From assembly GCA_001001345.1 (NCBI GenBank), contig LCKI01000001.1, forward strand, positions 66,339-121,408: a stretch of DNA of 55,070 nt, read 5' to 3'. The notes below the pieces were generated by a model. It was not told the origin of the DNA. It did no database searches and was given only the letters and a program-made list of their open reading frames with translations. Both the position numbers and the translations under genes were made by a program. Below are positions 1,852 through 11,911 of the stretch, in pieces (positions within the stretch are counted from its first letter, which is position 1; each line of letters opens with the position of its first letter). Source of the stretch: Parcubacteria group bacterium GW2011_GWC1_45_14 (lineage in GTDB: Bacteria > Patescibacteriota > Minisyncoccia > Moranbacterales > GWC2-37-73).

Positions 1852-1880
1852 ATCCTAGCATATAATCTATAAAATGTCAA
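1852..1880 (-). promoter_or_regulatory. sigma70 promoter for the GNAT gene
   Basis: TTGACA-17 bp-TAGGAT (TG-extended) on the minus strand. Confidence 0.65.
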
Positions 1881-2785
1881 TAGCATGTACTTGAAGGGTA
1901 CGTAGGTAACACTTGCACTGAATTATGAAAATTAATGGGTGTAGCGTAGCACAGGGTCTCATGGGGACGCCTGCAATTGTATTCGATCAACCATTCGGTA
2001 ACTGATCGGTTGAACTTCTCAATATCTGAGGTAAAGTTACCGAAATTTATGAACTCGCTTTGGATGGTCTGGTTGAAACGTTCAATAACCGGATTGTCTT
2101 TTGGTGTTCTAGCTCTGCTCCAGTAATGTGGAAGTTTCAGATTCTCACAAGCTTGATCAAAATATTTATGGAATTCGGATCCATTGTCAGTTTGGATGTT
2201 CTGGATATTTCCGTCAATCAGATAAAGCAAGCGATTGAGAAAGTCGGAGGCATTTTGGGAATTGGAACTTTTGTACATTCTGGCGAAAGCCACCTTGGAA
2301 AAGAAATCGATGCCTGTGAAAATATATCTTTTTAGGTTACCCCTCCTAATTTCAACCGTATCCAGGCAAAGCAGGAATCCGCTTTGGGGTTGCTTTTTAA
2401 GCCTGGTAATTCGTGCTTTTTTCTTTGCTTTTAAGCGCTTTTTGGTGATCTTGGCGGTTCTTAGTTTGTTAGGATACAATTTATGCTTTTGAATGACGTC
2501 CTGGATTTTCCAGCTCGAGAGCCAATATCCGTATTCGTCGAAGTAAAGTTTTTCAATCTTGAATTTTGAGTAGCAAAGGTTTCTGGTTCTTAATTTCACG
2601 ACCCTGTCTTCTTCCAGCCGGGTAATTTCTTTTTGCCTGGTATTGAGTGGCGCCCTGCTTCTGTCTTCCGGGGTGAAAAGGTTGTGGGGATCAAAAACAT
2701 TGTGCCATTTGTAGAAGGTTTTCCTGGAGATTCCGAAGTGCCTACAGGTCTTAGATACATCCTTACACTCTCGGTAGTAATCCAT
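1877..2785 (-). CDS. IS481-family transposase (HTH + rve DDE core), 5'-truncated
   Basis: TCRHFGISRKTFYKW HTH; CLDT, QTDNGSEF and ERFNQT DDE residues; YNCRRPH; the frame continues upstream (LSKSARNRLKW) to a stop with no start codon. Confidence 0.85.
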   Translation of the reverse strand: MDYYRECKDVSKTCRHFGISRKTFYKWHNVFDPHNLFTPEDRSRAPLNTRQKEITRLEEDRVVKLRTRNLCYSKFKIEKLYFDEYGYWLSSWKIQDVIQKHKLYPNKLRTAKITKKRLKAKKKARITRLKKQPQSGFLLCLDTVEIRRGNLKRYIFTGIDFFSKVAFARMYKSSNSQNASDFLNRLLYLIDGNIQNIQTDNGSEFHKYFDQACENLKLPHYWSRARTPKDNPVIERFNQTIQSEFINFGNFTSDIEKFNRSVTEWLIEYNCRRPHETLCYATPINFHNSVQVLPTYPSSTCY

Positions 2786-2822
2786 CCACTTGAGGCGATT
2801 ACGGGCACTTTTTGAAAGCGTA
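1886..2822 (-). mobile_element. Partial IS481-family element; one terminal IR at 1886-1913
   Basis: TGTACTTGAAGGGTACGTAGGTAACACT has the TGT terminus and GGTAACAC motif typical of IS481 ends; no partner IR seen at the other side. Confidence 0.65.
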
Positions 2823-2918
2823 GCATTATTTTTTTAAAAAATGGCTTATTATTTACAGAGATATTTTGCACTCAATGTTTTTTTGGGTATAATGCTATAA
2901 AGCAGTAAAAAATACATC

Positions 2919-4553
2919 ATGATAAATCAAAATACGGTACTATTATTCCTGATTTCATTTATTGGTTTATCCCTAGGGGGCTTTGTGCTGTCAAAGGGAC
3001 CAACAAAAAGACTTAATTTGAGTTTTAGTTTTCTGTCACTCTCTGCAATTGTGTGGATGAATTTTATTTATTTTGAAGATGTCGTATCAGATCCGGCAAT
3101 AATGAACTTTCTTCTAAAAGCAGATTTTGCTTCGGGTGCCTTTCTTGGTTTTTCCTCGCTTTTATTTTGTATGGACGTTGCAAATCTCAAATGGAGTGAA
3201 AAATTTTTCGTTAGAATGCCTTTGTATATAATTCCTTTTATTTTAACAATGCTGGTTTTTTTCTCAAATTTCATACTGGCAGGATATGAAATATTGCAGG
3301 GAGGCGTTATCAACCCATTATTTGGGTCTGGTGAAATAGTTTATAATACATTAGTTGCATCAGCTCCTTTTATTGGTATATCTTTGATTTTTTGGAAATA
3401 TAAAAAAGCATCCAAGGAAGAAAGGTCTAAATTCATATATCTTTTAATTGGTCTTTTTTTAAGCCTAGGAACAGCAGTTATTTCAAATATATTATTGGCA
3501 AATTATATCCAGAACAGTCCTAATTATGGTCTATATTCAAGATTTGGAGCCTTTAGTATAATTTTTCTTGTATTGTTTACTGGGTATTCAATAATAAAGC
3601 ACGGACTGCTTAATGTTAAGGTTATTGCAACTGAGTTGCTGTCATTTGCCATTCTTGTTATAAGTTTTGTTCAGATATTTACTGCTACAAATTTGGTACA
3701 TACTATTTTTCAATCCATAGTATTTTTAGTATTGTTAATCATAGTAGTTCTGTTAGTCAGAAGTGTTGAAAATGAAGTTAATAGAAAGGAAGAGCTTCAA
3801 GTCATGGCGGACAAGCTCGCCCAGGCGAACGACCAGTTGCGCAAATTGGACAATGCCAAGACGGAATTCATCTCGATCGCTTCGCACCAACTCAGAACGC
3901 CGCTCACTTCCGTAAAGGGCTTCATCTCACTCATCATCGAAGGGTCATATGGGGAGATCAATGATGGCGTGAGGGACGCGCTGACCAAGGTGTACGCCTC
4001 TTCCGAGAGGCTGATCCAGCTGGTCGAGGACCTTTTGAACGTCTCCAGGATCGAGTCTGGCAGGATGCAGTTCACTTTCGAGAAGGCTGAAGTTGACGGG
4101 ATGATGAAAGAGCTCTATGACAACTTCATGTTGGTCGCCAAGAACAAGGATCTTTATTTGGATTTGAAATTGCCTGAAAATGGACTTCCTGAAATCACGA
4201 TGGATCCGGGTAAGATTCGCGAAGTGATTTCCAATTTCACGGACAATGCCTTGAAATACACGGAGAAGGGCGGGGTGACGATGAAGGCGGAGGAGACGAA
4301 GGATAGGACGGTCAAGATCACGATTTCCGATACAGGAATCGGCGTGCCTGCCGACGAGATGCAATACCTCTTCAAGAAATTCTCCCGCGGAAAGGACACT
4401 GGCAGACTCCATGCTAGCGGAACGGGACTTGGACTCTATGTCGGCAAAAATATCGTCGACGCCCACCACGGAAGAGTTTGGGTGGAATCGGATGGAGAAG
4501 GCAAGGGATCAAGGTTCATTATCGAACTTCCGATAGAGCAACCGGCAAATTAG
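2919..4553 (+). CDS. Membrane sensor histidine kinase (HisKA_7TM-like N-terminus, HisKA, HATPase_c)
   Basis: Multi-TM N-terminus; ASHQLRTPLT H-box; NFTDNALKYT N-box; DTGIG G1; GTGLGL G2; GEGKGSRF G3. Confidence 0.93.
   Translation: MINQNTVLLFLISFIGLSLGGFVLSKGPTKRLNLSFSFLSLSAIVWMNFIYFEDVVSDPAIMNFLLKADFASGAFLGFSSLLFCMDVANLKWSEKFFVRMPLYIIPFILTMLVFFSNFILAGYEILQGGVINPLFGSGEIVYNTLVASAPFIGISLIFWKYKKASKEERSKFIYLLIGLFLSLGTAVISNILLANYIQNSPNYGLYSRFGAFSIIFLVLFTGYSIIKHGLLNVKVIATELLSFAILVISFVQIFTATNLVHTIFQSIVFLVLLIIVVLLVRSVENEVNRKEELQVMADKLAQANDQLRKLDNAKTEFISIASHQLRTPLTSVKGFISLIIEGSYGEINDGVRDALTKVYASSERLIQLVEDLLNVSRIESGRMQFTFEKAEVDGMMKELYDNFMLVAKNKDLYLDLKLPENGLPEITMDPGKIREVISNFTDNALKYTEKGGVTMKAEETKDRTVKITISDTGIGVPADEMQYLFKKFSRGKDTGRLHASGTGLGLYVGKNIVDAHHGRVWVESDGEGKGSRFIIELPIEQPAN
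4344..4553 (+). repeat. Copy 1 of a diverged direct repeat (kinase 3' end); copy 2 at 9019-9234
   Basis: Near-identical peptide (..YLFKKFSRGKDTGRLHASG..IELPIEQPA) at both loci. Confidence 0.9.
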
Positions 4554-4603
4554 CCAGAAGTGTTACTTGAATTGATTAGATGTAGTGAGAATGAAATATC
4601 AAC

Positions 4604-4637
4604 ACAAAAAACAACCAAAGGCCTGGTTGTTTTTTGT
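4604..4637. terminator. Bidirectional terminator
   Basis: acaaaaaacaacca/tggttgttttttgt between convergent genes. Confidence 0.75.
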
Positions 4638-4667
4638 ATTCTCGAATAATTGTATGTGATTTGATAT

Positions 4668-5612
4668 TCAATCGTTTGTTTGTATTTTATTTTTTAAAAA
4701 ATTAATCGTTTTTAGGAGTCCTTCTTCTAGTTTTATTTTTGGCTCCCAATTTAACTCTTTCCGCGCAAGTGATATGTCGGGCTGTCTTTGTTTGGGATCG
4801 TCTTGCGGAAGCTTATTATATATAAGCTTGCTTTTGCTTTCCGGTATTAATCTTAATATTTTCTCCGCTAATTCCTTTATTGTTATTTCTTCGGGGCATC
4901 CTAAATTTATAGGACCAGTAATGCTATTATCAGTTTCCATCATTTTTATTAAGCCATCTATAAGATCATTTACATACTGAAAGCTTCTGGTCTGCAAGCC
5001 ATCACCATGAATAGTTATGTCCTTATTTGATAGGGCTTGTATTATGAAATTGGAAATAACTCTACCGTCATTAGGATGCATTCCAGGTCCGTATGTATTA
5101 AAAATCCTGACAACTTTTATGTTAAGATGGTGTTGTCTGTGATAATCAAAAAAAAGTGTTTCAGCGCATCTCTTTCCTTCATCATAACATGACCTTATTC
5201 CCACTGGATTAACATTTCCCCAGTAATTTTCGTGTTGGGGGTGAATTTCCGGATCTCCATAAACCTCAGAAGTCGATGCTTGAAGTATTTTTGCTTTGGT
5301 CCTCTTGGCAAGCCCAAGTATATTTATGGCACCATGAACCGAAGTCTTTATTGTTTGAACTGGATCAGATTGGTAATGTATAGGGGATGCGGGACAGGCT
5401 AAATTGTATATTTGATCAATTTCGACATAAAGTGGAAATGTTATATCATGTCGGATAAATTCGAATCTTTTGTTATCAAGAAGATCGATTATGTTGCCTT
5501 TATTACCAGAAAATAGGTTATCTGCGCATAAGACCTTATGTCCATTTTCAAGAAGCTTTCTGCAAAGATGAGAGCCAATGAATCCAGCTCCTCCAGTAAC
5601 AAGTATTTTCAT
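4668..5612 (-). CDS. UDP-glucuronic acid decarboxylase (UDP-xylose synthase)-family extended SDR
   Basis: [45 protein letters not shown]; start placed at ATG 5612. Confidence 0.92.
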
Positions 5613-5902
5613 ATTTTCTTGTTGATTGATAAATTTCGATATCCTATAGTTTATATCAATTTTATTGACAAATAGCAACCAAAAAAAATACAAAAACATT
5701 AATATATAAAAGGTGGTGTTTTTGTCACCAGAACTAATACGCCTCCCTGATATTGACATAAGGCCATAAAAATGATTCTATATGTAGAATGTGTAAATAA
5801 CATTCATAGGAAGAGGGTTCTTTGAAAATATATCAGAATTAGTACCATTGGCTGATCTCGATGAGGATTCCAAGCGATTAATGCGAAAAAGGAGGTATTA
5901 TC

Positions 5903-7060
5903 ATGAAAAAAAAGGGAACTCGCTCCATTTTACGTAAAGAATTTTTTGGAGGAACATTGTTTGATGTGATTAGTGGGAAAAGGGTATATATTAGCAATGA
6001 GGAATACGCAGAGATTAAGAAAGTAGGCGAATTATCAATTGCTCTTCAGGGAGAGTTAAGGTTCTCAGGACATGTTGAACTGGTTGAGCCAGAATATCTT
6101 TTCCCGAACGGTTTTAGTTCCCCAGATACCGTCTTTTTCGAACTTACTAAATCATGTAATCTTCGTTGCTCGCATTGTCTAAATGATTCTGGAGTAGTAT
6201 CAAGCAATGAAACTAGTACGAGTCAGAAAATTGCTTCACTGCGGAGCGCTGCGAGGGCAGGTGTTCAAGAGGTGAGATTTACAGGTGGGGAACCTTTGAT
6301 GCATATTGATATTTGCACACTTATTGAAACAGCGTCAGTATTGAATATGAGATCCTCTATGGGGACTAATGCTACTTTAGTAACTGCGGCCATGGCAAAG
6401 GATTTGGTTAGGAGTGGCTTATGCTCATCAATAGTAAGTATTGAAGGAGATGAAAAAACTCACGATTTGATTAGAGGAAATGGAAGTTATAAAAGAGCAT
6501 TGGCGGGATTGATAAACCTAATGGATCAAGGCATTGATGTTCGTATAAATATGGTATTGATGAAATCAAACATCTCAAGCATCGTTTCTGTTTTAGAATT
6601 GTCGAGCAAGCTTAATATTCCTATTTTTTTGCGTAGATTTGTTCCTTCTGGTAGAGGCATGGAAAATCAAGGGGAGGTGCTTACTGCCAATGATTATGAG
6701 AAATTGCGAATGGATCTTGAAAAATATTTACTGGAGCCAAGAGGACTAGTTCAGGGGCATTATTTGGCAGAAAAGAAAGCTGAGATCAGAGCAAGTCTGC
6801 CGTTTACGAGGTATAGTTGCAGCGCGGGACAGCGTGGAATTATCATAACCCCAAATGGGCATGTGCATACTTGCGGTTTCCTCGCAATGCTCGGAGAGAA
6901 GGTCTTAGGAAAAACTCCAGAAGAAGAAATTTCTATTATCTGGAAAAGATTAACGGAATCAAATCATATGGAATTTTTGAGGAAAAAACTTGATTTGCAC
7001 AATGCTGGGAATGAGCAGATTGTTACTAATTGTCTTGCTATTCCAAAAATCTACCGATAA
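5903..7060 (+). CDS. Radical SAM enzyme with C-terminal SPASM/Twitch-type domain
   Basis: CNLRCSHC (CxxxCxxC), FTGGEP, CSAGQRGIIITPNGHVHTCGF; AAGGAGGT SD. Confidence 0.9.
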   Translation: MKKKGTRSILRKEFFGGTLFDVISGKRVYISNEEYAEIKKVGELSIALQGELRFSGHVELVEPEYLFPNGFSSPDTVFFELTKSCNLRCSHCLNDSGVVSSNETSTSQKIASLRSAARAGVQEVRFTGGEPLMHIDICTLIETASVLNMRSSMGTNATLVTAAMAKDLVRSGLCSSIVSIEGDEKTHDLIRGNGSYKRALAGLINLMDQGIDVRINMVLMKSNISSIVSVLELSSKLNIPIFLRRFVPSGRGMENQGEVLTANDYEKLRMDLEKYLLEPRGLVQGHYLAEKKAEIRASLPFTRYSCSAGQRGIIITPNGHVHTCGFLAMLGEKVLGKTPEEEISIIWKRLTESNHMEFLRKKLDLHNAGNEQIVTNCLAIPKIYR

Positions 7061-7085
7061 AGCCTATTATTCGCGGGAGGTCATC

Positions 7086-7631
7086 ATGCTTATAGGACTT
7101 GCAGGGCTGCATGGTGCAGGCAAAACAAATCTGGCGCATCTTTTGCAGAAAAGAAAAGGATGGAATTATCTGAACAAGAGAGATGTCTTGATTGAACTAT
7201 ATAAAGAAACAGGAGATATATTCTTTGAAAAAAAATTCATGGATTGGTACAGGGGCTTGTATGTCTCATTAGGCTCATTTGAAGTTATGTCATTAATAAT
7301 GGCGAAATCTTTTTATGTTGACACCTGTATTACGGTAGTTGATGCCATTCATGGTCTGGAAGAGTGGAAAGCGGTAAAGAAAATATGTCCGAGAGCTATA
7401 TTAGTTGGTGTATTTTCTCCAAAAGAGGTTCGTCGCAGAAGAAATGATCCAGGAGATGATGTCCTGGATAAAAAAAGAATATCCTATTGGCATGAAAGAT
7501 TACATGAAGGGTATGAGCAGTGTCTTCTTGCGGAGGTTGAGTGGGCTTTCTCTGGAGTTGTTTCAATCGATATTCAAGGAATGGAATGCGATGAATTGGA
7601 AGCTTATATAATGAAAAGAGTTTATGAATAA
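7086..7631 (+). CDS. P-loop nucleoside-monophosphate-kinase-like protein
   Basis: N-terminal LIGLAGLHGAGKT Walker A, VVDAI, lid-like EVRRRR; GGGAGG SD before ATG 7086. Confidence 0.75.
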   Translation: MLIGLAGLHGAGKTNLAHLLQKRKGWNYLNKRDVLIELYKETGDIFFEKKFMDWYRGLYVSLGSFEVMSLIMAKSFYVDTCITVVDAIHGLEEWKAVKKICPRAILVGVFSPKEVRRRRNDPGDDVLDKKRISYWHERLHEGYEQCLLAEVEWAFSGVVSIDIQGMECDELEAYIMKRVYE

Positions 7632-7689
7632 AACGGTGCTAATATTTATAATTATCCTTTTTTCTTTATTCGCATTCAATTGACAACCG

Positions 7690-7727
7690 AAGTCCTTCTG
7701 ATAAAATTCAGAAGGACTTTTTTGTTT
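7690..7727 (+). terminator. Rho-independent terminator after the radical SAM-kinase pair
   Basis: aagtccttctga/tcagaaggactt followed by a T tract. Confidence 0.8.
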
Positions 7728-7747
7728 AAAAATACTTGATTAAATTT

Positions 7748-8164
7748 ATGCTGATAAGAAAAGCGGGGGCTATAATATTAAGTAGTGACAGCTCAGACAA
7801 AGTGGGGCTTATTTATAGAACCAAGCAAAAAGACTGGTCTTTTCCAAAGGGTCATATTGAGAGTGAAGAAAGTAGTTTTGAGGCAATGATAAGGGAAGTT
7901 GTCGAAGAATCTGGATTGAAAGTAAAACTTTTACAAGAACTTCCAGATATGAATTATGTGGATTCGCAAGGGAATGAAGTTTTAATATCTATGTATTTAG
8001 TGAAATCCATGGACGATAATAATACTTTCGGAAAATCCGGAGATGATGTCGTTGAATGGGTGAAAATTGAGGAGGTTTCCGAGATCCTGACGTATGAAAA
8101 TTTGAAAAAATACTACAGGGAAATATTACCTATCATTTTTTCGTATAAATCTGTTCAGGAATAA
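7748..8164 (+). CDS. NUDIX hydrolase
   Basis: WSFPKGHIESEESSFEAMIREVVEESG Nudix box. Confidence 0.88.
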   Translation: MLIRKAGAIILSSDSSDKVGLIYRTKQKDWSFPKGHIESEESSFEAMIREVVEESGLKVKLLQELPDMNYVDSQGNEVLISMYLVKSMDDNNTFGKSGDDVVEWVKIEEVSEILTYENLKKYYREILPIIFSYKSVQE

Positions 8165-8963
8165 GTGATAAGCTTATGTCGTCTTTAGTTTTATTAAGGT
8201 GCTTTACAAATTCAAAACGAGCCTTCTCTGAGCCAAAAAATGCTGAAGCCGGATTAATATCAATAAACCAGTATCGAAGTGTTTTTTTACATAAGATTAG
8301 ATCGAAAGAAAAAACATTCAACTTCAGTGCCTGTTCCAGAATCGAAAGATCTTTTTTAATGGATTGAATCGCGGACATGGGCGGGGCATAATTCTGGGGA
8401 TTGTTTATTAAGAATCCATTAATATAATAAAACTTTATCAAGACCCTATTGGGAGCATTCATGCTTTCTTCTAAGTAAAAGTCTATCTCGTCATTTTTTA
8501 ATGTGTTTATAAAATTAAAAAATGATTGTTTATTATAAAATTCTTGAGTGAATGTTGCCTGTTGCTGACTTTTGGCATAAGCGGGAAATTTTAAAAAAGT
8601 CGCAGCAAGGATTAATGAATTAATAGAATTAGCCGAGATGCTTTCTGGTACCGATAGCCCACTCCTTTTGATGCGTTGCTGTATGCAGAATTTTGATTTT
8701 TCACCGGATAGGAATGTTTTGTTTATTATATGACAAGGGAAATTTTCCAAAAAGGATATATATCTTCCGGAATGCAAGGAATTGGTCAGAAAATAAATCA
8801 CTTTACCATGCCAGTTGAAACTGACGAAGTTATCATTCAGCAATATATCTTCAATGAATAGTATAGTGCAGAATTCTTCTTTGGAATTACACATAGATTG
8901 AATAAGTGCTGCCCCATCAAGATATGGTTCTTTTTTCGATAATATTAATATTATTGTGTTCAT
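8133..8963 (-). CDS. ATP-grasp-fold protein (divergent, RimK-like C-terminus)
   Basis: SKFCIQQRIKRSGLSVPES, FPAYAKS, YLEE, FSFDLIL...WFIDINPASAF (D/E-x-N). Confidence 0.65.
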   Translation of the reverse strand: MNTIILILSKKEPYLDGAALIQSMCNSKEEFCTILFIEDILLNDNFVSFNWHGKVIYFLTNSLHSGRYISFLENFPCHIINKTFLSGEKSKFCIQQRIKRSGLSVPESISANSINSLILAATFLKFPAYAKSQQQATFTQEFYNKQSFFNFINTLKNDEIDFYLEESMNAPNRVLIKFYYINGFLINNPQNYAPPMSAIQSIKKDLSILEQALKLNVFSFDLILCKKTLRYWFIDINPASAFFGSEKARFEFVKHLNKTKDDISLSLIPEQIYTKK

Positions 8964-9018
8964 TGAAATATAAAGTTAATTAGAGGATATTATGCTATAA
9001 TTACATTAATGTCAACCT

Positions 9019-9234
9019 ATGCCTGTCGATGAGATGTCGTATCTGTTCAAGAAATTCTCCCGCGGAAAAGACACCGGCAGGCTCCACGCCAGCGGAACCG
9101 GAACCGGACTCGGACTTTATGTCGGCAAAAACATCGTCGACGCCCACCACGGAAAAGTCTGGGTGGAATCCGACGGGGAAGGCAAAGGCTCGAGGTTTAT
9201 CATCGAACTTCCGATAGAGCAACCGGCAGGGTAA
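9019..9234 (+). pseudogene. Relic C-terminal fragment of a histidine kinase paralog (repeat copy 2)
   Basis: Only the F/G2/G3 boxes remain; 6-nt GGAACC duplication gives GTGTGLGL; GC-richer than its flanks. Confidence 0.85.
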
Positions 9235-9236
9235 AC

Positions 9237-9280
9237 AATTTTGAAATTTAGAATTTAAATTTTGATTGAATTTAGAATTT
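9237..9280. repeat. Left arm of heptamer-repeat inverted element flanking the CYTH gene
   Basis: aattttgaaatttagaatttaaattttga approximates the reverse complement of 9851-9882. Confidence 0.7.
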
Positions 9281-9288
9281 AAAAAAAT

Positions 9289-9825
9289 ATGGAAATCGAA
9301 TTAAGAGCGAAAGTCTCAAACCCGCAATTATTGGAAGAAAAATTGAAAGGATTGTCTGGTATTGTTGAGAAAAAAAGTAATGAACGTCAGGTTGATACTT
9401 ACTTGAAACAAGAAAATGACGAAGAAAGGAAAATGATAGTTCGTATTCGTAAGAATTACGAAAAGAATAGTGCTATATTGACTTTCAAGGGTAAGTCTAA
9501 AAATGAACATGATATAGCTTGGCAGGATTACGATACTCCTATTGAGGATCCTGAGAGGTTGGAGAGCGTACTCGTTAACAACGGATATGTGTATGTTTGC
9601 TTGATTGATAAGGTTAGGCAAAGTTTTGGATATGGAGATTTCGAAATCAATATTGATAATATCCGTGATTTAGGATTATTTGTTGAAATTGAAAAACAAG
9701 GCGAGGAGGATAGCGTTGAAGTGGTGAAAAAAGAAATCATAGAATTATTAAGCACTCTTGGTATAAGTGAGTCTGATATTATTACTCAGGGATATGTGCA
9801 ATTGGTTTTGAATAAGGAAAAATAA
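9289..9825 (+). CDS. CYTH-domain protein (class IV adenylate cyclase/triphosphate tunnel family)
   Basis: N-terminal EIELR (ExExK/R), QVDTY, VRIR, LTFKG, IDKVR, GLFVEIE, GY near the C-terminus. Confidence 0.88.
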   Translation: MEIELRAKVSNPQLLEEKLKGLSGIVEKKSNERQVDTYLKQENDEERKMIVRIRKNYEKNSAILTFKGKSKNEHDIAWQDYDTPIEDPERLESVLVNNGYVYVCLIDKVRQSFGYGDFEINIDNIRDLGLFVEIEKQGEEDSVEVVKKEIIELLSTLGISESDIITQGYVQLVLNKEK

Positions 9826-9888
9826 TTTCATCATTAAGGAATTGGAATTTGATTCAAAATTCAAAATTCTAAATTCAAAATTAAATTC
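9824..9888. repeat. Right arm of heptamer-repeat inverted element
   Basis: gattcaaaattcaaaattctaaattcaaaatt, tandem 7-mers. Confidence 0.7.
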
Positions 9889-10344
9889 ATGAAGGTTCAA
9901 GACATCATGACCAAGGATGTGATCACGGTTCCTGTTGACGGGCCGATCGATCTCGTAGCGCGCATTCTTATTGAAAACAGGATCCATGGGATTCCGGTCG
10001 TTGATGACAGCGGGAAGCTCGTTGGTATCGTCACTGAGACGGATTTTTTCACCAAGGATTCCGCGAAGTTTAATCTGCTCTCGTACATCGAATTTATCAG
10101 GAAAAACAAGCCTGCTGGCCAGATGACCAAGGAAGAAAAAGACCACATCATAAGTTTAATCAATTCGACCGTCGCCGACATCATGTCGGACAAATGCGTG
10201 ACAGTGGATCAGGAGGATGAGATTGAGAAACTCTTGGGGGTTTTTCGGGAAACCAGGCTCAGTTCCATTCCGGTAGTGGACGGTGAAGGGGTTTTGAGAG
10301 GAATTATAACCCGTTCGGACGTGATCAAGACGATCCGGATTTAG
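9889..10344 (+). CDS. CBS-domain pair protein
   Basis: VQDIMTKDVITV, GIPVVD..LVGIVTETD, SIPVVD..GIITRSD. Confidence 0.92.
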   Translation: MKVQDIMTKDVITVPVDGPIDLVARILIENRIHGIPVVDDSGKLVGIVTETDFFTKDSAKFNLLSYIEFIRKNKPAGQMTKEEKDHIISLINSTVADIMSDKCVTVDQEDEIEKLLGVFRETRLSSIPVVDGEGVLRGIITRSDVIKTIRI

Positions 10345-10427
10345 GGGTTCATTGGGATTTTTATTTTAATGTTAAAAATTCGATAAATTAACTTTTCTTC
10401 GCATGAAGAAAAGTTACAAAAGAAATG

Positions 10428-10553
10428 CCGCACGTGCTCGCGCTGGCCGGATTCTGGCGCTTAATCGCTAAAATTTACACTCCGCTGCGCTGCGTTTCAA
10501 AATTTCTTCACGCTCACGCGCTTGAATCCGGAAACGCGCTTCGCAATGTGCGG
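10428..10553. other. Long nested inverted repeat (structured element)
   Basis: ccgcacgt/atgtgcgg, gcgc/gcgc, ccggattc/gaatccgg nested stems; GC-rich within an AT-rich spacer. Confidence 0.55.
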
Positions 10554-10675
10554 AGATGGGATACGAAATACAAAAAACGCCACAAGGGTGTTTTTTTGTT
10601 GATTTTAAGTAGGAATTAGTATAATATGCAGATATCCTAATAAGCTAATGAAGCTACAAGCTACAAGCTATTCAT

Positions 10676-11911
10676 ATGAAACAATCCCGACTTACTACCA
10701 AGACTAGGAAAGAGGCGCCGAAGGACGAGGTCAGCCTCAACGCCCAGCTTCTGATGCGCGCAGGATTCGTGGATAAACTCACAGCGGGAGTGTATTCTTT
10801 CTTGCCTTTGGGATTTAGGGTGCTCAAAAAAATCGAAAACATCATCCGCGAAGAGATGGTCGCCGTGGGCGGACAGGAGATTTTGATGCCGACGCTTCAC
10901 CCCAAAGCGAATTGGGAGCAGACCGGAAGATGGGACACTATGGACGACCTCTATAAAGTCGAGGACGCGAGCGGAAGGCAGTTCGGACTTGGGCCGACCC
11001 ATGAGGAAGTCGTGGTTCCCTTGATGCAGAAATTCGCCAACTCATATAAGGATTTCCCTTTCGCGGTTTTCCAGATCCAAAACAAATTTCGTATGGAGCT
11101 TCGTGCCAAATCGGGGCTGATGCGTGGGAGGGAATTTTTTATGAAGGATCTTTATTCTTTCCATTTGGACGAGAAGGACATGGATGAATATTACGAAAAA
11201 GTGAAAGCTGCCTACGTCAGGATTTTCCAACGGGCGGGCATCGGGGAAAAAACCCATCTGACTTTCGCGTCCGGGGGATCCTTTTCAAAATACTCCCATG
11301 AATTCCAGACAGTCAGCGGTGCTGGCGAGGATCTGATTTATATTTGCCAGAAATGTTCGACCGCGATCAACAAGGAAATCAAGGAGGAAACGCCGGTTTG
11401 CCCCGAATGCGGAGGAGCCGATTTTTCCGAGGAGAAAGCGATCGAAACCGGAAACATCTTCAAGCTCAAAACGAAGTTCTCCGCCCCTTTCGGTTTGGAA
11501 ATCTCCGATGAAAAGGGAGAGAAGAAAACTGTCATCATGGGATGCTATGGGATCGGACTTAACCGTATGATGGGAACGGTCGTGGAGCTTTTCTCCGATG
11601 AGAAGGGGATCGTTTGGCCGCAGTCCATCGCTCCTTTCGCCGTCCATTTGATTTCTCTGAATCAGGATGAGGAAGCGCAGAGGATTTATGAACAGCTCCA
11701 AAGAGAAGGGATCGAAGTGCTATTCGACGACCGCGACGCGAGGGCCGGGGAGAAATTCGCCGATTCCGACCTTATCGGAATTCCATGGCGCGTGGTGGTG
11801 AGCGGCAAGACGATTTCCGCCGGCGGAGTGGAAGTGAAAAAGAGAAGCGAGGAAAAAGCGGAAGTGATGAGTGTGGAGGAATTGCTCAGGAAGATGAAAA
11901 TTGGAAAATAG
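10676..11911 (+). CDS. proS: Proline--tRNA ligase (short bacterial type lacking the INS editing domain)
   Basis: LGPTHEE, QIQNKFRME, GLMRGREFFMKDLYSF, MGCYGIG, GEKFADSDLIGIP. Confidence 0.95.
   Translation: MKQSRLTTKTRKEAPKDEVSLNAQLLMRAGFVDKLTAGVYSFLPLGFRVLKKIENIIREEMVAVGGQEILMPTLHPKANWEQTGRWDTMDDLYKVEDASGRQFGLGPTHEEVVVPLMQKFANSYKDFPFAVFQIQNKFRMELRAKSGLMRGREFFMKDLYSFHLDEKDMDEYYEKVKAAYVRIFQRAGIGEKTHLTFASGGSFSKYSHEFQTVSGAGEDLIYICQKCSTAINKEIKEETPVCPECGGADFSEEKAIETGNIFKLKTKFSAPFGLEISDEKGEKKTVIMGCYGIGLNRMMGTVVELFSDEKGIVWPQSIAPFAVHLISLNQDEEAQRIYEQLQREGIEVLFDDRDARAGEKFADSDLIGIPWRVVVSGKTISAGGVEVKKRSEEKAEVMSVEELLRKMKIGK

Follow-up and report, generated by a model that had tools for sequence, protein, structure and literature searches.

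What do a radical S-adenosylmethionine (SAM) enzyme, a small P-loop kinase, a NUDIX hydrolase, and an ATP-grasp enzyme accomplish together, and how did they come to stand side by side? The question is raised by a stretch of 55,070 nucleotides from Parcubacteria group bacterium GW2011_GWC1_45_14, a reduced-genome groundwater bacterium (contig LCKI01000001.1, positions 66,339-121,408). The whole of this stretch is referred to here as the window. The answer developed below, to which we assign a probability of about one half, is that these genes constitute a mobile and self-contained pathway for tailoring a phosphorylated small molecule of the nucleotide type, either a nucleotide or a nucleotide-sugar. 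The core of the cassette is formed by the radical SAM enzyme, a kinase resembling the nucleoside monophosphate (NMP) kinases, the NUDIX hydrolase, and a RimK-like ATP-grasp enzyme, to which a class I methyltransferase is often added. Its arrangement in the window is as follows.

5903-7060, plus strand: radical SAM enzyme (Pfam Radical_SAM, 73.7 bits, cut-off 29.5).
7086-7631, plus strand: P-loop kinase of 181 residues with a predicted NMP-kinase fold (homologue alignment, PDB profile, and AlphaFold2 (AF2) model).
7689-7720, plus strand: terminator-like hairpin of 13 pairs with a T-run, located 3' of the kinase gene.
7736-8164, plus strand: NUDIX hydrolase (PF00293, 56.7 bits against a cut-off of 21.1).
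8133-8963, minus strand: ATP-grasp enzyme with a predicted RimK/LysX-like fold (sub-threshold matches only in Pfam; structure neighbours in the ESM Atlas).

The first two genes form a unit with its own Shine-Dalgarno sites and terminator, as an earlier note on this DNA had described. The Shine-Dalgarno sequence AAAGGAGGT precedes the ATG of the radical SAM gene, and the kinase starts at the ATG at position 7086, which lies behind its own site, GGGAGG, and 25 bp past the radical SAM stop codon. A longer kinase reading frame starting with TTG at position 6990 was rejected, as the homologues give it no support. The unit ends at the 13-pair hairpin. A strong promoter-like site (7680-7707) overlaps this hairpin and stands in front of the NUDIX gene, and the ATP-grasp gene is convergent with the NUDIX gene, the two overlapping by 32 bp. 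Terminator-like sites in the region number 8, against 3.0 ± 1.5 in shuffled sequences. In the window, the four cassette genes are accordingly distributed over three separate units: the radical SAM and kinase genes, the NUDIX gene, and the ATP-grasp gene on the other strand.

Such a division into three units would fit genes that were unrelated neighbours sharing an AT-rich island by chance. That explanation is so improbable that it can be set aside, since 24 lineages keep the gene order and fused proteins of four kinds exist. For the census of linkage, metagenomes were searched with the kinase profile alone, which provides a test from the other side, independent of the radical SAM enzyme. In all, 48 kinase-bearing loci were collected, genome loci included, and they group into 24 lineages at a threshold of 90% identity. 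In 22 of these, the radical SAM gene is the immediate upstream neighbour of the kinase gene, and the remaining two have less than 400 bp of upstream sequence. A NUDIX gene is located downstream in 20 of the 21 lineages whose sequence extends 600 bp or more in that direction, the decayed-looking locus L130 being the exception, and an ATP-grasp gene is present in 14 of the 15 with at least 1.9 kb of downstream sequence, the exception being the Saccharibacteria locus L017. A class I methyltransferase gene is found between or behind the cassette genes in L014/L099, L016/L098, L017, L101, and L102. The pairing of the radical SAM enzyme and the kinase is far beyond chance, and the two form a conserved unit.

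The same order was observed in genome assemblies. Seven genome loci carry a true orthologue of the radical SAM enzyme. By tblastn, a NUDIX gene follows directly downstream in six of the seven and an ATP-grasp gene is present in four; in the remaining locus, L012, the sequence stops within the radical SAM gene. The hosts of the six loci are Kaiserbacteria, Zambryskibacteria, Saccharibacteria, another metagenome-assembled genome (MAG) of the Patescibacteria, a Clostridium-labelled gut MAG, and the Mycoplasma-labelled gut MAG Mycoplasma sp. CAG:611, and gut metagenomes are also among the carriers. Between the radical SAM and NUDIX genes of all six lies an open reading frame (ORF) of ∼180 residues that can be aligned with the window kinase.

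Fused proteins provide a further line of evidence. A Pfam scan of 18 long members of the ATP-grasp family revealed 10 NUDIX-ATP-grasp fusions, 2 ATP-grasp-methyltransferase fusions, and 1 radical SAM-ATP-grasp fusion (P0169), with 5 members carrying no extra domain. The radical SAM portion of P0169, which includes the N-terminal domain, displays 36% identity to the window enzyme across 376 residues. Proteins of the Mycoplasma sp. CAG:611 lineage (L015, L114-L122) have a methyltransferase domain fused to the front of the radical SAM enzyme. The kinase is never fused among the proteins examined. On the basis of the conserved order in distant lineages and of these fused proteins, the NUDIX hydrolase and the ATP-grasp enzyme belong to the cassette. 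The earlier note had proposed the co-occurrence of the homologues elsewhere as a test of its cluster, and that co-occurrence is indeed seen, in 24 lineages and in four kinds of fusion.

Not every copy of the cassette is intact. In L123, L124, L125, and L127, all from the largest gut lineage, a pair of overlapping ORFs stands in place of a single kinase gene (2906-3160 and 3153-3479 in L123, for example), suggestive of a frameshift. In L130 the kinase and ATP-grasp genes are fragmented and the NUDIX gene is missing. These split and fragmented genes argue that the cassette decays in some strains.

How the cassette came to lie in the window can be read from its borders, which involve the following features.

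2919-4553, plus strand: seven-transmembrane (7TM) sensor histidine kinase (HisKA_7TM, 40.3 bits, cut-off 28.6; also HisKA and HATPase_c).
4345-4547: left copy of a direct repeat of ∼205 bp, corresponding to the 3' end of the histidine kinase gene (repeat search).
4668-5759, minus strand: UDP-glucuronate decarboxylase (UXS; match to human UXS1, PDB 2b69).
9019-9234, plus strand: orphan remnant of 71 codons from a histidine kinase 3' end, holding the right copy of the repeat (9020-9228).

The fragment at 9019-9234 is identical to residues 476-543 of the histidine kinase encoded at 2919-4553 at 64 of 70 residues (91%). At the DNA level, the direct repeats 4345-4547 and 9020-9228 display 83-89% identity at a spacing of 4675-4681 bp (repeat families D1 and D2), and the segment of 4.68 kb between them comprises exactly the UXS gene and the four cassette genes. 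G002, a relative from the same family, has the 3' end of the histidine kinase gene (75% protein identity) ∼500 bp upstream of the prolyl-tRNA synthetase (ProRS) gene with no cassette between them. Given this empty-site-like arrangement, the histidine kinase gene is the resident, and the segment was inserted behind its 3' end. Both repeat copies are equally close to the copy in G002, such that the incoming one is not distinguishable. No integrase gene was found inside the inserted segment.

The composition and the distribution of the segment are those of a newcomer. All of the genes named in the earlier note were recovered in place, and the segment is AT-rich, with GC contents of 0.354 from 4554 to 9019 and 0.337 for the gene encoding a CYTH protein beyond it, versus 0.45 from 12000 to 55070. 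A search of the 40 nearest genomes found no orthologue of the radical SAM enzyme; the best match among these relatives shows 34% identity, lacks the N-terminal domain, and lies in a different cluster of multiple radical SAM genes. A search of 400 other genomes of the phylum with the kinase profile (338 of them at least 90% complete) yielded one weak match with an E-value of 9e-12. Contigs from four metagenome runs were compared with positions 2500-10800. The same arrangement with 0 differences is present in the second-study runs X6 and X7, whose contigs include pieces across both ends of the island (4324-4611 and 8660-9039). No contig among the four runs joins the histidine kinase gene to sequence past the right repeat, although contigs cannot prove the absence of an island-free form. 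The cassette is a foreign, horizontally mobile segment inserted at the 3' end of a resident histidine kinase gene. That it is foreign to this reduced genome is evident from its GC content, the repeats, and its rarity among relatives and in the phylum.

What, then, might the enzymes act upon? The kinase contains the P-loop GLAGLHGAGKT. In an alignment with the six locus ORFs (A3, seven sequences), the invariant features are the motif GxHxxGK[ST], Lys 31, Trp 54, Tyr 55, Asp 86, His 89, Glu 93, and Trp 94, together with Arg 116, Arg 119, Asp 124, Asp 128, Arg 131, and His 136. A profile search of the PDB identified SSO1041 (3h0k/3lw7) with an E-value of 2.9e-8. The AF2 model, with a predicted local distance difference test (pLDDT) score of 86.5, superimposes on AMP-bound 3lw7 with a Z-score of 18.5 (rmsd 2.4, 161 aligned residues, 20% identity). 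Next in rank are phosphomevalonate kinases (Z 15.2 and 15.1), the animal enzyme being the second match overall. Adenylate kinases reach Z-scores of up to 14.9, and the adenylate and UMP/CMP kinases as a group match residues 1-177 with Z-scores of 14-15. Adenylate, UMP/CMP, and phosphomevalonate kinases all phosphorylate a small phosphomonoester. The modelled fold is that of an NMP kinase, complete with a Walker A loop, a lid, and the lid arginines Arg 116, Arg 119, and Arg 131, in agreement with the kinship to NMP kinases that the earlier note had proposed. A predicted complex of the radical SAM enzyme and the kinase, based on alignments A1 and A3, received a score of 0.00, which is informative neither way.

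The NUDIX hydrolase displays a Nudix box (GX5EX7REUXEEXGU), in which Gly 39, Glu 45, Arg 53, Glu 54, Glu 57, and Glu 58 are invariant and Gly 60 is present in at least 90% of the rows of alignment A5. The profile built from this alignment matches, in the PDB, the Ap4A hydrolase from Aquifex (3i7u, E-value 5e-18), Ndx1 from Thermus (6e-17), and Dcp2 (1e-16), with MutT1 also near. By sequence, the enzyme appears to be of the Ap4A-hydrolase/Dcp2/MutT1 type.

The Dcp2 match, along with matches to RNA pyrophosphohydrolases, raises the question of whether the target might be the end of an RNA. In such a scheme, the kinase and the NUDIX hydrolase would process 5' ends, sealing or protection would fall to the ATP-grasp enzyme and methyltransferase, and the radical SAM enzyme would modify a base. 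A set of kinase, phosphohydrolase, and methyltransferase recalls the logic of the Pnkp/Hen1 system, and ThiI is encoded in loci of the L114 type. The ATP-grasp enzyme, however, is RimK-like rather than a ligase of the covalent nucleotidyltransferase type, no polynucleotide kinase appears among the 50 structure matches listed for the kinase, and Pfam scans of the window and of the flanking ORFs detected no RNA-binding domain. RNA-end modification or repair is, on balance, very improbable.

The ATP-grasp enzyme belongs to a small family, with 255 representatives at an E-value of 1e-3 or better among 1.84 billion proteins, and 91 at 1e-30 or better. A search for homologues with the single sequence returned only the query itself, and the family was found by a profile search. 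Lys 91, Lys 131, Glu 165, Asp 221, and the motif Asp 235-x-Asn 237 are invariant in alignment A4, and Lys 177 is conserved. NCBIfam provided no matches. The nearest structures in the ESM Atlas are RimK/LysX clusters with template modelling (TM) scores of 0.78-0.81, and the model thus points to a RimK/LysX-like fold and a putative ligase.

At the sequence level, the only PDB and Pfam matches of the ATP-grasp profile lead elsewhere. Pfam Ins134_P3_kin is matched by the window protein with 18.8 bits against a cut-off of 23, and sub-threshold by many family members, and inositol-tetrakisphosphate 1-kinase (ITPK1) is matched by the profile with an E-value of 1.7e-4. On these grounds the substrate could be a pyrophosphorylated compound other than a nucleotide, such as an inositol or cyclitol polyphosphate, with the ATP-grasp enzyme serving as an ITPK-like kinase, the P-loop kinase making the diphosphate, the NUDIX hydrolase behaving as a DIPP-like enzyme, and the radical SAM enzyme acting as an oxidoreductase like BtrN. 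The match of the NUDIX profile to DIPP1 (E-value ∼4e-8), the second rank of phosphomevalonate kinase among the kinase structures, and a Z-score of 15.4 between the radical SAM model and BtrN are in keeping with this idea. The ITPK match, however, is limited to profile positions 188-234, the generic C-terminal ATP-grasp motif, whereas the Atlas neighbours are RimK/LysX ligases. SkfB, MoaA, and the viperins all outscore BtrN by a wide margin, and no gene of an inositol pathway is linked to the cassette in any locus. A non-nucleotide substrate of this kind is improbable.

Homologues of the radical SAM enzyme form ∼100 full-length clusters at 37-48% identity, with named hosts that include Kaiserbacteria, Gottesmanbacteria, other Patescibacteria, and a Parachlamydiales MAG. 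The core motif CNLRCSHC (Cys 85-x3-Cys 89-x2-Cys 92, or CX3CX2C) is invariant. In alignment A1 (23 sequences), three auxiliary cysteines, and only three, are conserved in at least 90% of the rows, namely Cys 306, Cys 324, and Cys 377. The alignment is also rich in arginine: seven are invariant (Arg 11, Arg 27, Arg 125, Arg 191, Arg 244, Arg 251, and Arg 311) and four nearly so (Arg 83, Arg 214, Arg 245, and Arg 296). The match to Pfam SPASM, at 19.4 bits, falls narrowly short of the cut-off of 21.5. The AF2 model, with a pLDDT of 91.2, is built from three parts: an N-terminal domain (residues ∼5-61) resembling PqqD and the recognition elements (RREs) of ribosomal peptide maturation, the CX3CX2C core, and a C-terminal domain of the twitch/SPASM type. 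The CX3CX2C motif and the Cys-ligated C-terminal domain are the features of the twitch/SPASM class, and the model superimposes on SkfB, SuiB, anSME, BlsE, and MoaA to its C-terminus. The structure matches are listed here.

SkfB: Z 31.3 (VIA), model residues 6-380, rmsd 3.5, 333 residues aligned.
SuiB: Z 28.9 (VIA), model residues 5-385, rmsd 3.7, 346 residues aligned.
anSME: Z 23.6, model residues from 73.
BlsE: Z 22.8, model residues from 72.
MoaA: Z 22.2-22.5, model residues from 64.
Viperins: Z ∼22, model residues from ∼70.

In sequence-profile searches of the PDB, SkfB is again the best match (E-value 9e-35) and BlsE the second (1.7e-27). The NCBIfam scores, with cut-offs, are 70.4/300 for SkfB, 109.6/265 for MftC, 82.1/381 for PqqE, 91.8/625 for StsB, and 69.5/400 for BlsE, and the MoaA models reach 81-89 bits against cut-offs of 231-325 (87.2/284 and 89.4/325). 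The best NCBIfam matches are a mixture of tetrapyrrole enzymes (NirJ2 and AhbD) and peptide maturases (MftC, ScmF, and WgkB), all below cut-off. Two other radical SAM findings lie outside the cassette itself. The genome has another radical SAM/SPASM gene 13.5 kb before the window (G000:C1:52863-53429), whose product shows 29% identity to the cassette enzyme in its core, and on a single contig of a relative from the same order, five or more radical SAM genes stand in a row (G028:C37:576-10900), which represent a different cluster.

With MoaA, the GTP 3',8-cyclase, the cassette enzyme shares a twitch-type domain and a three-Cys auxiliary cluster. In a profile alignment, Cys 306 and Cys 324 fall on the first and third auxiliary-cluster cysteines of MoaA, and Arg 311 aligns with the first of the two arginines behind the second cluster cysteine. 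Both of these arginines, which we take to bind the phosphates of GTP, are alanines in the R17/266/268A mutant (2fb2). MoaA differs in that its third cysteine is placed elsewhere (Cys 377 in the cassette enzyme) and in that it has no RRE-like domain; moreover, no molybdopterin genes are linked to the cassette.

Several of these observations weigh against a nucleotide-type substrate and favour the modification of a peptide or protein. The best structure matches are the peptide maturases SkfB and SuiB, which align from residue 5 or 6 onward, while enzymes without the N-terminal domain align from residue ∼63-73 and with Z-scores no higher than 23.6. The lead of SkfB and SuiB in Z-score is due to this domain. 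They have the same three-part build as the cassette enzyme: a PqqD-like N-terminal domain, a CX3CX2C barrel, and a C-terminal domain with an auxiliary cluster. In an ESM Atlas model, residues 5-56 superimpose on stand-alone PqqD with a TM score of 0.57 and on MftB with 0.53, and every PqqD-like domain known to us binds a peptide. The invariance of Arg 11, Glu 13, Phe 15, Gly 16, Thr 18, Arg 27, and Glu 34 places the domain under selection, and this constraint is strong. RimK/LysX-type ATP-grasp enzymes often act on protein C-termini. Finally, no NCBIfam model scores above its cut-off for the radical SAM enzyme, the kinase, the NUDIX hydrolase, or the ATP-grasp enzyme, and their assignment stands at the superfamily level.

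The RRE-like domain might thus recruit either a peptide or a tail belonging to some widely conserved protein, which the radical SAM enzyme would cross-link or otherwise alter and which the RimK-like ATP-grasp enzyme would extend or ligate at a carboxylate. The kinase and the NUDIX hydrolase would make or remove a handle consisting of phosphate or derived from a nucleotide. This explanation includes a peptide-nucleotide conjugate, with which both lines of evidence would be reconciled. The likeness to SkfB and SuiB stops short of the gene neighbourhood, however. The identity to these enzymes is 19-21%, and the cassette lacks a conserved precursor, protease, or exporter, has partners of the nucleotide type, and encodes invariant arginines. 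An all-versus-all BLASTP comparison of small ORFs (15-100 amino acids) found none shared between 18 loci apart from antisense shadows of the enzyme genes, a comparison that could miss very short or fast-evolving peptides. Neither a protease nor a response regulator was detected among the 62 flanking ORFs scanned, and the only transporter genes beside the cassette, of the MFS type, occur in L017 and L011 and do not recur. Pfam PqqD matches none of 10 N-termini (pieces of 75-78 residues) even at E-values up to 10. The model of the domain, moreover, consists of three strands (8-13, 16-21, and 27-30) followed by two helices (32-41 and 46-52), whereas canonical RREs have three helices. The kinase resembles small-molecule NMP kinases and not protein kinases, and a cassette that crosses phyla without a precursor would need a universal target. 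Peptide or protein modification is, in sum, a minority explanation that deserves appreciable weight. The earlier note had held that grouping of the radical SAM enzyme with peptide maturases, plus a precursor elsewhere, would count against its proposal: the structural likeness to SkfB and SuiB is present, and a conserved precursor gene nearby is not.

A nucleotide-type substrate is the best reading of the cassette in light of the NMP-kinase fold and the Ap4A/Dcp2-type NUDIX hydrolase. The arginine-rich, three-Cys radical SAM enzyme and the nucleotide-type neighbours described below, which include enzymes of the house-cleaning type, UXS, and UDP-glucose dehydrogenase, lend it support, as do the lack of a conserved small ORF in the 18 loci and the movement across phyla without other conserved genes. 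The gene linkage, the fusions, the folds, and the insertion at the 3' end of the histidine kinase gene are observed; the sequence of events proposed here is inferred throughout. The kinase would convert a phosphomonoester of the NMP type to a diphosphate, thereby either feeding the radical SAM enzyme a substrate at the NDP/NTP level or re-activating an intermediate. The radical SAM enzyme would abstract a hydrogen atom from the sugar or the base, its substrate being held by the conserved arginines and by the open iron site of the three-Cys auxiliary cluster, as in MoaA. The NUDIX hydrolase would cleave the diphosphate or polyphosphate link of the altered nucleotide, and the ATP-grasp enzyme would join a carboxylate and an amine, for example that of an amino acid, on it. 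The methyltransferase, where present, would cap the product. The proposal in the earlier note that the cluster acts on a modified nucleotide or small molecule thus survives with respect to the linkage of the radical SAM enzyme, kinase, NUDIX hydrolase, and ATP-grasp enzyme and to their nucleotide-type folds, and fails with respect to the CYTH protein and the likeness to viperins.

The likeness to viperins concerns gene content: viperin with CMPK2, and the prokaryotic viperins (pVips) with their linked kinases, likewise place a radical SAM enzyme beside a small NMP-type kinase. Viperins have neither a PqqD-like N-terminal domain nor an auxiliary-cluster domain. The cassette family adds both of these, is always accompanied by a NUDIX hydrolase and usually by an ATP-grasp enzyme, and was not found in the phage records searched. 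No viperin model is among the 25 best NCBIfam matches of the window enzyme, and P0169 scores 78.9 bits with the viperin model NF038283, whose cut-off is 180. The pVip models of PADLOC (PDLC02904/02905) match only the radical SAM core, residues 77-233, with 52-60 bits. With SkfB and SuiB as the best structures and the auxiliary cysteines conserved, the enzyme is not viperin-like. Elsewhere in the cassette, PADLOC-DB 2.0 gave a candidate NUDIX model (PDC-S07, 44.8 bits), weak dCTPase and VakA matches to the P-loop, and nothing for the ATP-grasp enzyme; it matched no named defence system. A tblastn search of 50,697 phage records with the radical SAM enzyme yielded distant core matches only, in 18 records, all below 60% identity and none covering 80% of the query, and the kinase profile had no matches in IMG/VR. 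The antiviral role put forward in the earlier note therefore finds no support in PADLOC systems, phages, or IMG/VR.

The other role suggested in the earlier note was that the product might be a ligand for the adjacent histidine kinase. Of the 10 Patescibacteria-type lineages whose flanks reach 1.9 kb or more, 5 (the window, L011, L014, L094, and L131) have a 7TM histidine kinase no farther than ∼1.5 kb from the cassette, in four different arrangements; the lineages are not independent. The genome encodes four clear histidine kinases as defined by HATPase_c matches. With 5 of 10 lineages showing the association and four clear histidine kinase genes in the genome, chance is an unlikely explanation. 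Note that in the window the adjacency coincides with the site of insertion. The adjacency may stem from a landing place, from shared regulation, or from a link in function. A more speculative thought, which we consider unlikely, is that the cassette is a portable module for conflict or signalling, in which the RRE-bearing radical SAM enzyme works on a nucleotide or a peptide-nucleotide conjugate to yield, with its partner enzymes, a modified nucleotide that serves as an antimetabolite or a signal, and which in the Patescibacteria is wired to an orphan 7TM histidine kinase. In the groundwater locus L094, two tandem SET-domain proteins are encoded (3771-4657) between the ATP-grasp and 7TM histidine kinase genes.

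Beyond the core, the surroundings of the cassette are variable, and most of the variable neighbours are enzymes of nucleotide or nucleotide-sugar metabolism or mobility genes. A second NUDIX gene lies beside the cassette in L011, L013, L014, and L101, and a gene for a DUF84 NTPase resembling ITPase/XTPase in L014. In six gut lineages, a Zeta/PezT-like P-loop kinase is inserted between the radical SAM enzyme and the kinase. L092 carries a UDP-glucose dehydrogenase, an APH-like protein, and a short-chain dehydrogenase/reductase (SDR). Loci of the L103 type have a large serine recombinase, L013 has BRO-N/ORF6N proteins, and ThiI is encoded downstream in loci of the L114 type. Two Patescibacteria-type contigs contain what may be separate genes for peptides or secondary metabolites beside the cassette: a nitroreductase-YcaO fusion in the groundwater locus L131 (7879-10191), and a ThiF-like protein and an aromatic amino acid lyase in L095 (6837-7574 and 1771-3336).

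The UXS of the window aligns with human UXS1 (2b69) with 386 bits and an E-value of 1.8e-114 (residues 47-360 with residues 25-335), the next family scoring 140 bits. A UXS-like SDR is also located 3' of the ATP-grasp gene in L013 and L100, and UXS was found in 2 of the 25 relatives searched, one of them without the cassette radical SAM enzyme. UXS is accessory cargo of the inserted segment. Its N-terminal extension of ∼47 residues lies outside the UXS1 match, contains a hydrophobic stretch, and is possibly a membrane anchor.

The remaining features of the region are these.

1877-2785, minus strand: IS481-family transposase, upstream of the 7TM histidine kinase gene (NF033577, 185.5 bits, cut-off 224; also matched by Pfam rve and rve_3).
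9289-9825, plus strand: CYTH/class IV adenylate cyclase-like protein (TIGR00318, 80.5 bits against a cut-off of 57.95).
3' of the CYTH gene: CBS-pair protein, then ProRS (10676-11911) and IspH (survey of the window at 2.9-10.3 kb and beyond).

The earlier note had counted the CYTH gene as a member of the cluster. It lies outside the repeat-bounded segment, has the cassette as a neighbour in just 2 lineages of the 24, those of the window and L092, and was found in 1 of the 25 relatives searched, and it is not a member. Candidate CYTH genes in L096, L094, and L011 were rejected, as these unnamed ORFs upstream of the radical SAM gene are not of the CYTH type and are mutually unlike. In the window, the CYTH gene is bracketed by an AT-rich inverted repeat of 24 nucleotides (9240-9263 and 9857-9880, 79% complementary). 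In each of the four metagenome runs, summed contig depth rises 6- to 30-fold in the bin at 9702-9978, with many loose contig ends at 9847-9885, and a short intergenic repeat at this place seems to be common to many genomes of the community. The ProRS, at 411 residues, is the only one found in the genome and hence the housekeeping enzyme rather than a spare; it matches positions 1-237 and 389-565 of a bacterial model of 568 positions and is without the inserted editing domain.

The enzymes of the cassette all belong to known superfamilies, and their logic resembles that of known pathways in which radical SAM enzymes act on nucleotides. The closest relative of the kinase by both profile and structure is SSO1041/UPF0200, represented by 3lw7, which is AMP-bound according to its title, at 20% identity. 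Nucleoside-antibiotic pathways, including those of blasticidin S (BlsE, BlsI, and BlsL), of polyoxin and nikkomycin (PolH and PolJ), and those with 'cryptic phosphorylation', combine a radical SAM enzyme with an ATP-grasp ligase, a kinase or phosphatase, and a methyltransferase. Like the cassette, and with the same classes of enzyme, these clusters would work on a nucleotide or nucleoside. In contrast, the cassette has no glycosyltransferase, enolpyruvyl transferase, exporter, or other hallmark of nucleoside antibiotics, and its hosts are reduced-genome bacteria rather than actinomycetes. PolH and a phosphatase are reported to build octosyl acid on a nucleotide (PMC5365060), and sinefungin reportedly relies on a phosphorylation-dephosphorylation strategy (10.64898/2026.05.21.726688). 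A likeness to the tunicamycin cluster, expected to hold an SDR, a radical SAM enzyme, a methyltransferase, and a Nudix enzyme, was considered and dropped; the accessible part of PMC6105854 confirms only the methyltransferase TunM, assigned to immunity, and gives no enzyme classes for TunA, TunB, or TunN. No published description of the gene set was found in the full-text literature, which excludes subscription journals and preprint supplements, and within the same bounds none was found for UPF0200/SSO1041, papers naming 3LW7 being concerned with other subjects. One paper that names the same enzyme classes together (PMC5714238) is, going by title and abstract, a survey of yeast and human enzymes whose functions are unknown.

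If the proposed function is correct, the cassette would represent an undescribed five-enzyme route to a modified nucleotide that moves between phyla and is kept by bacteria whose genomes are among the smallest known and leave little room for biosynthesis. As a compact set of four or five genes, it is directly expressible and assayable. For radical SAM enzymology it poses the question of what role a PqqD-like domain plays where the partners are all nucleotide enzymes. To our knowledge, little is known of signalling in the Patescibacteria, and the repeated placement of the cassette beside an orphan 7TM histidine kinase would provide a handle on it.

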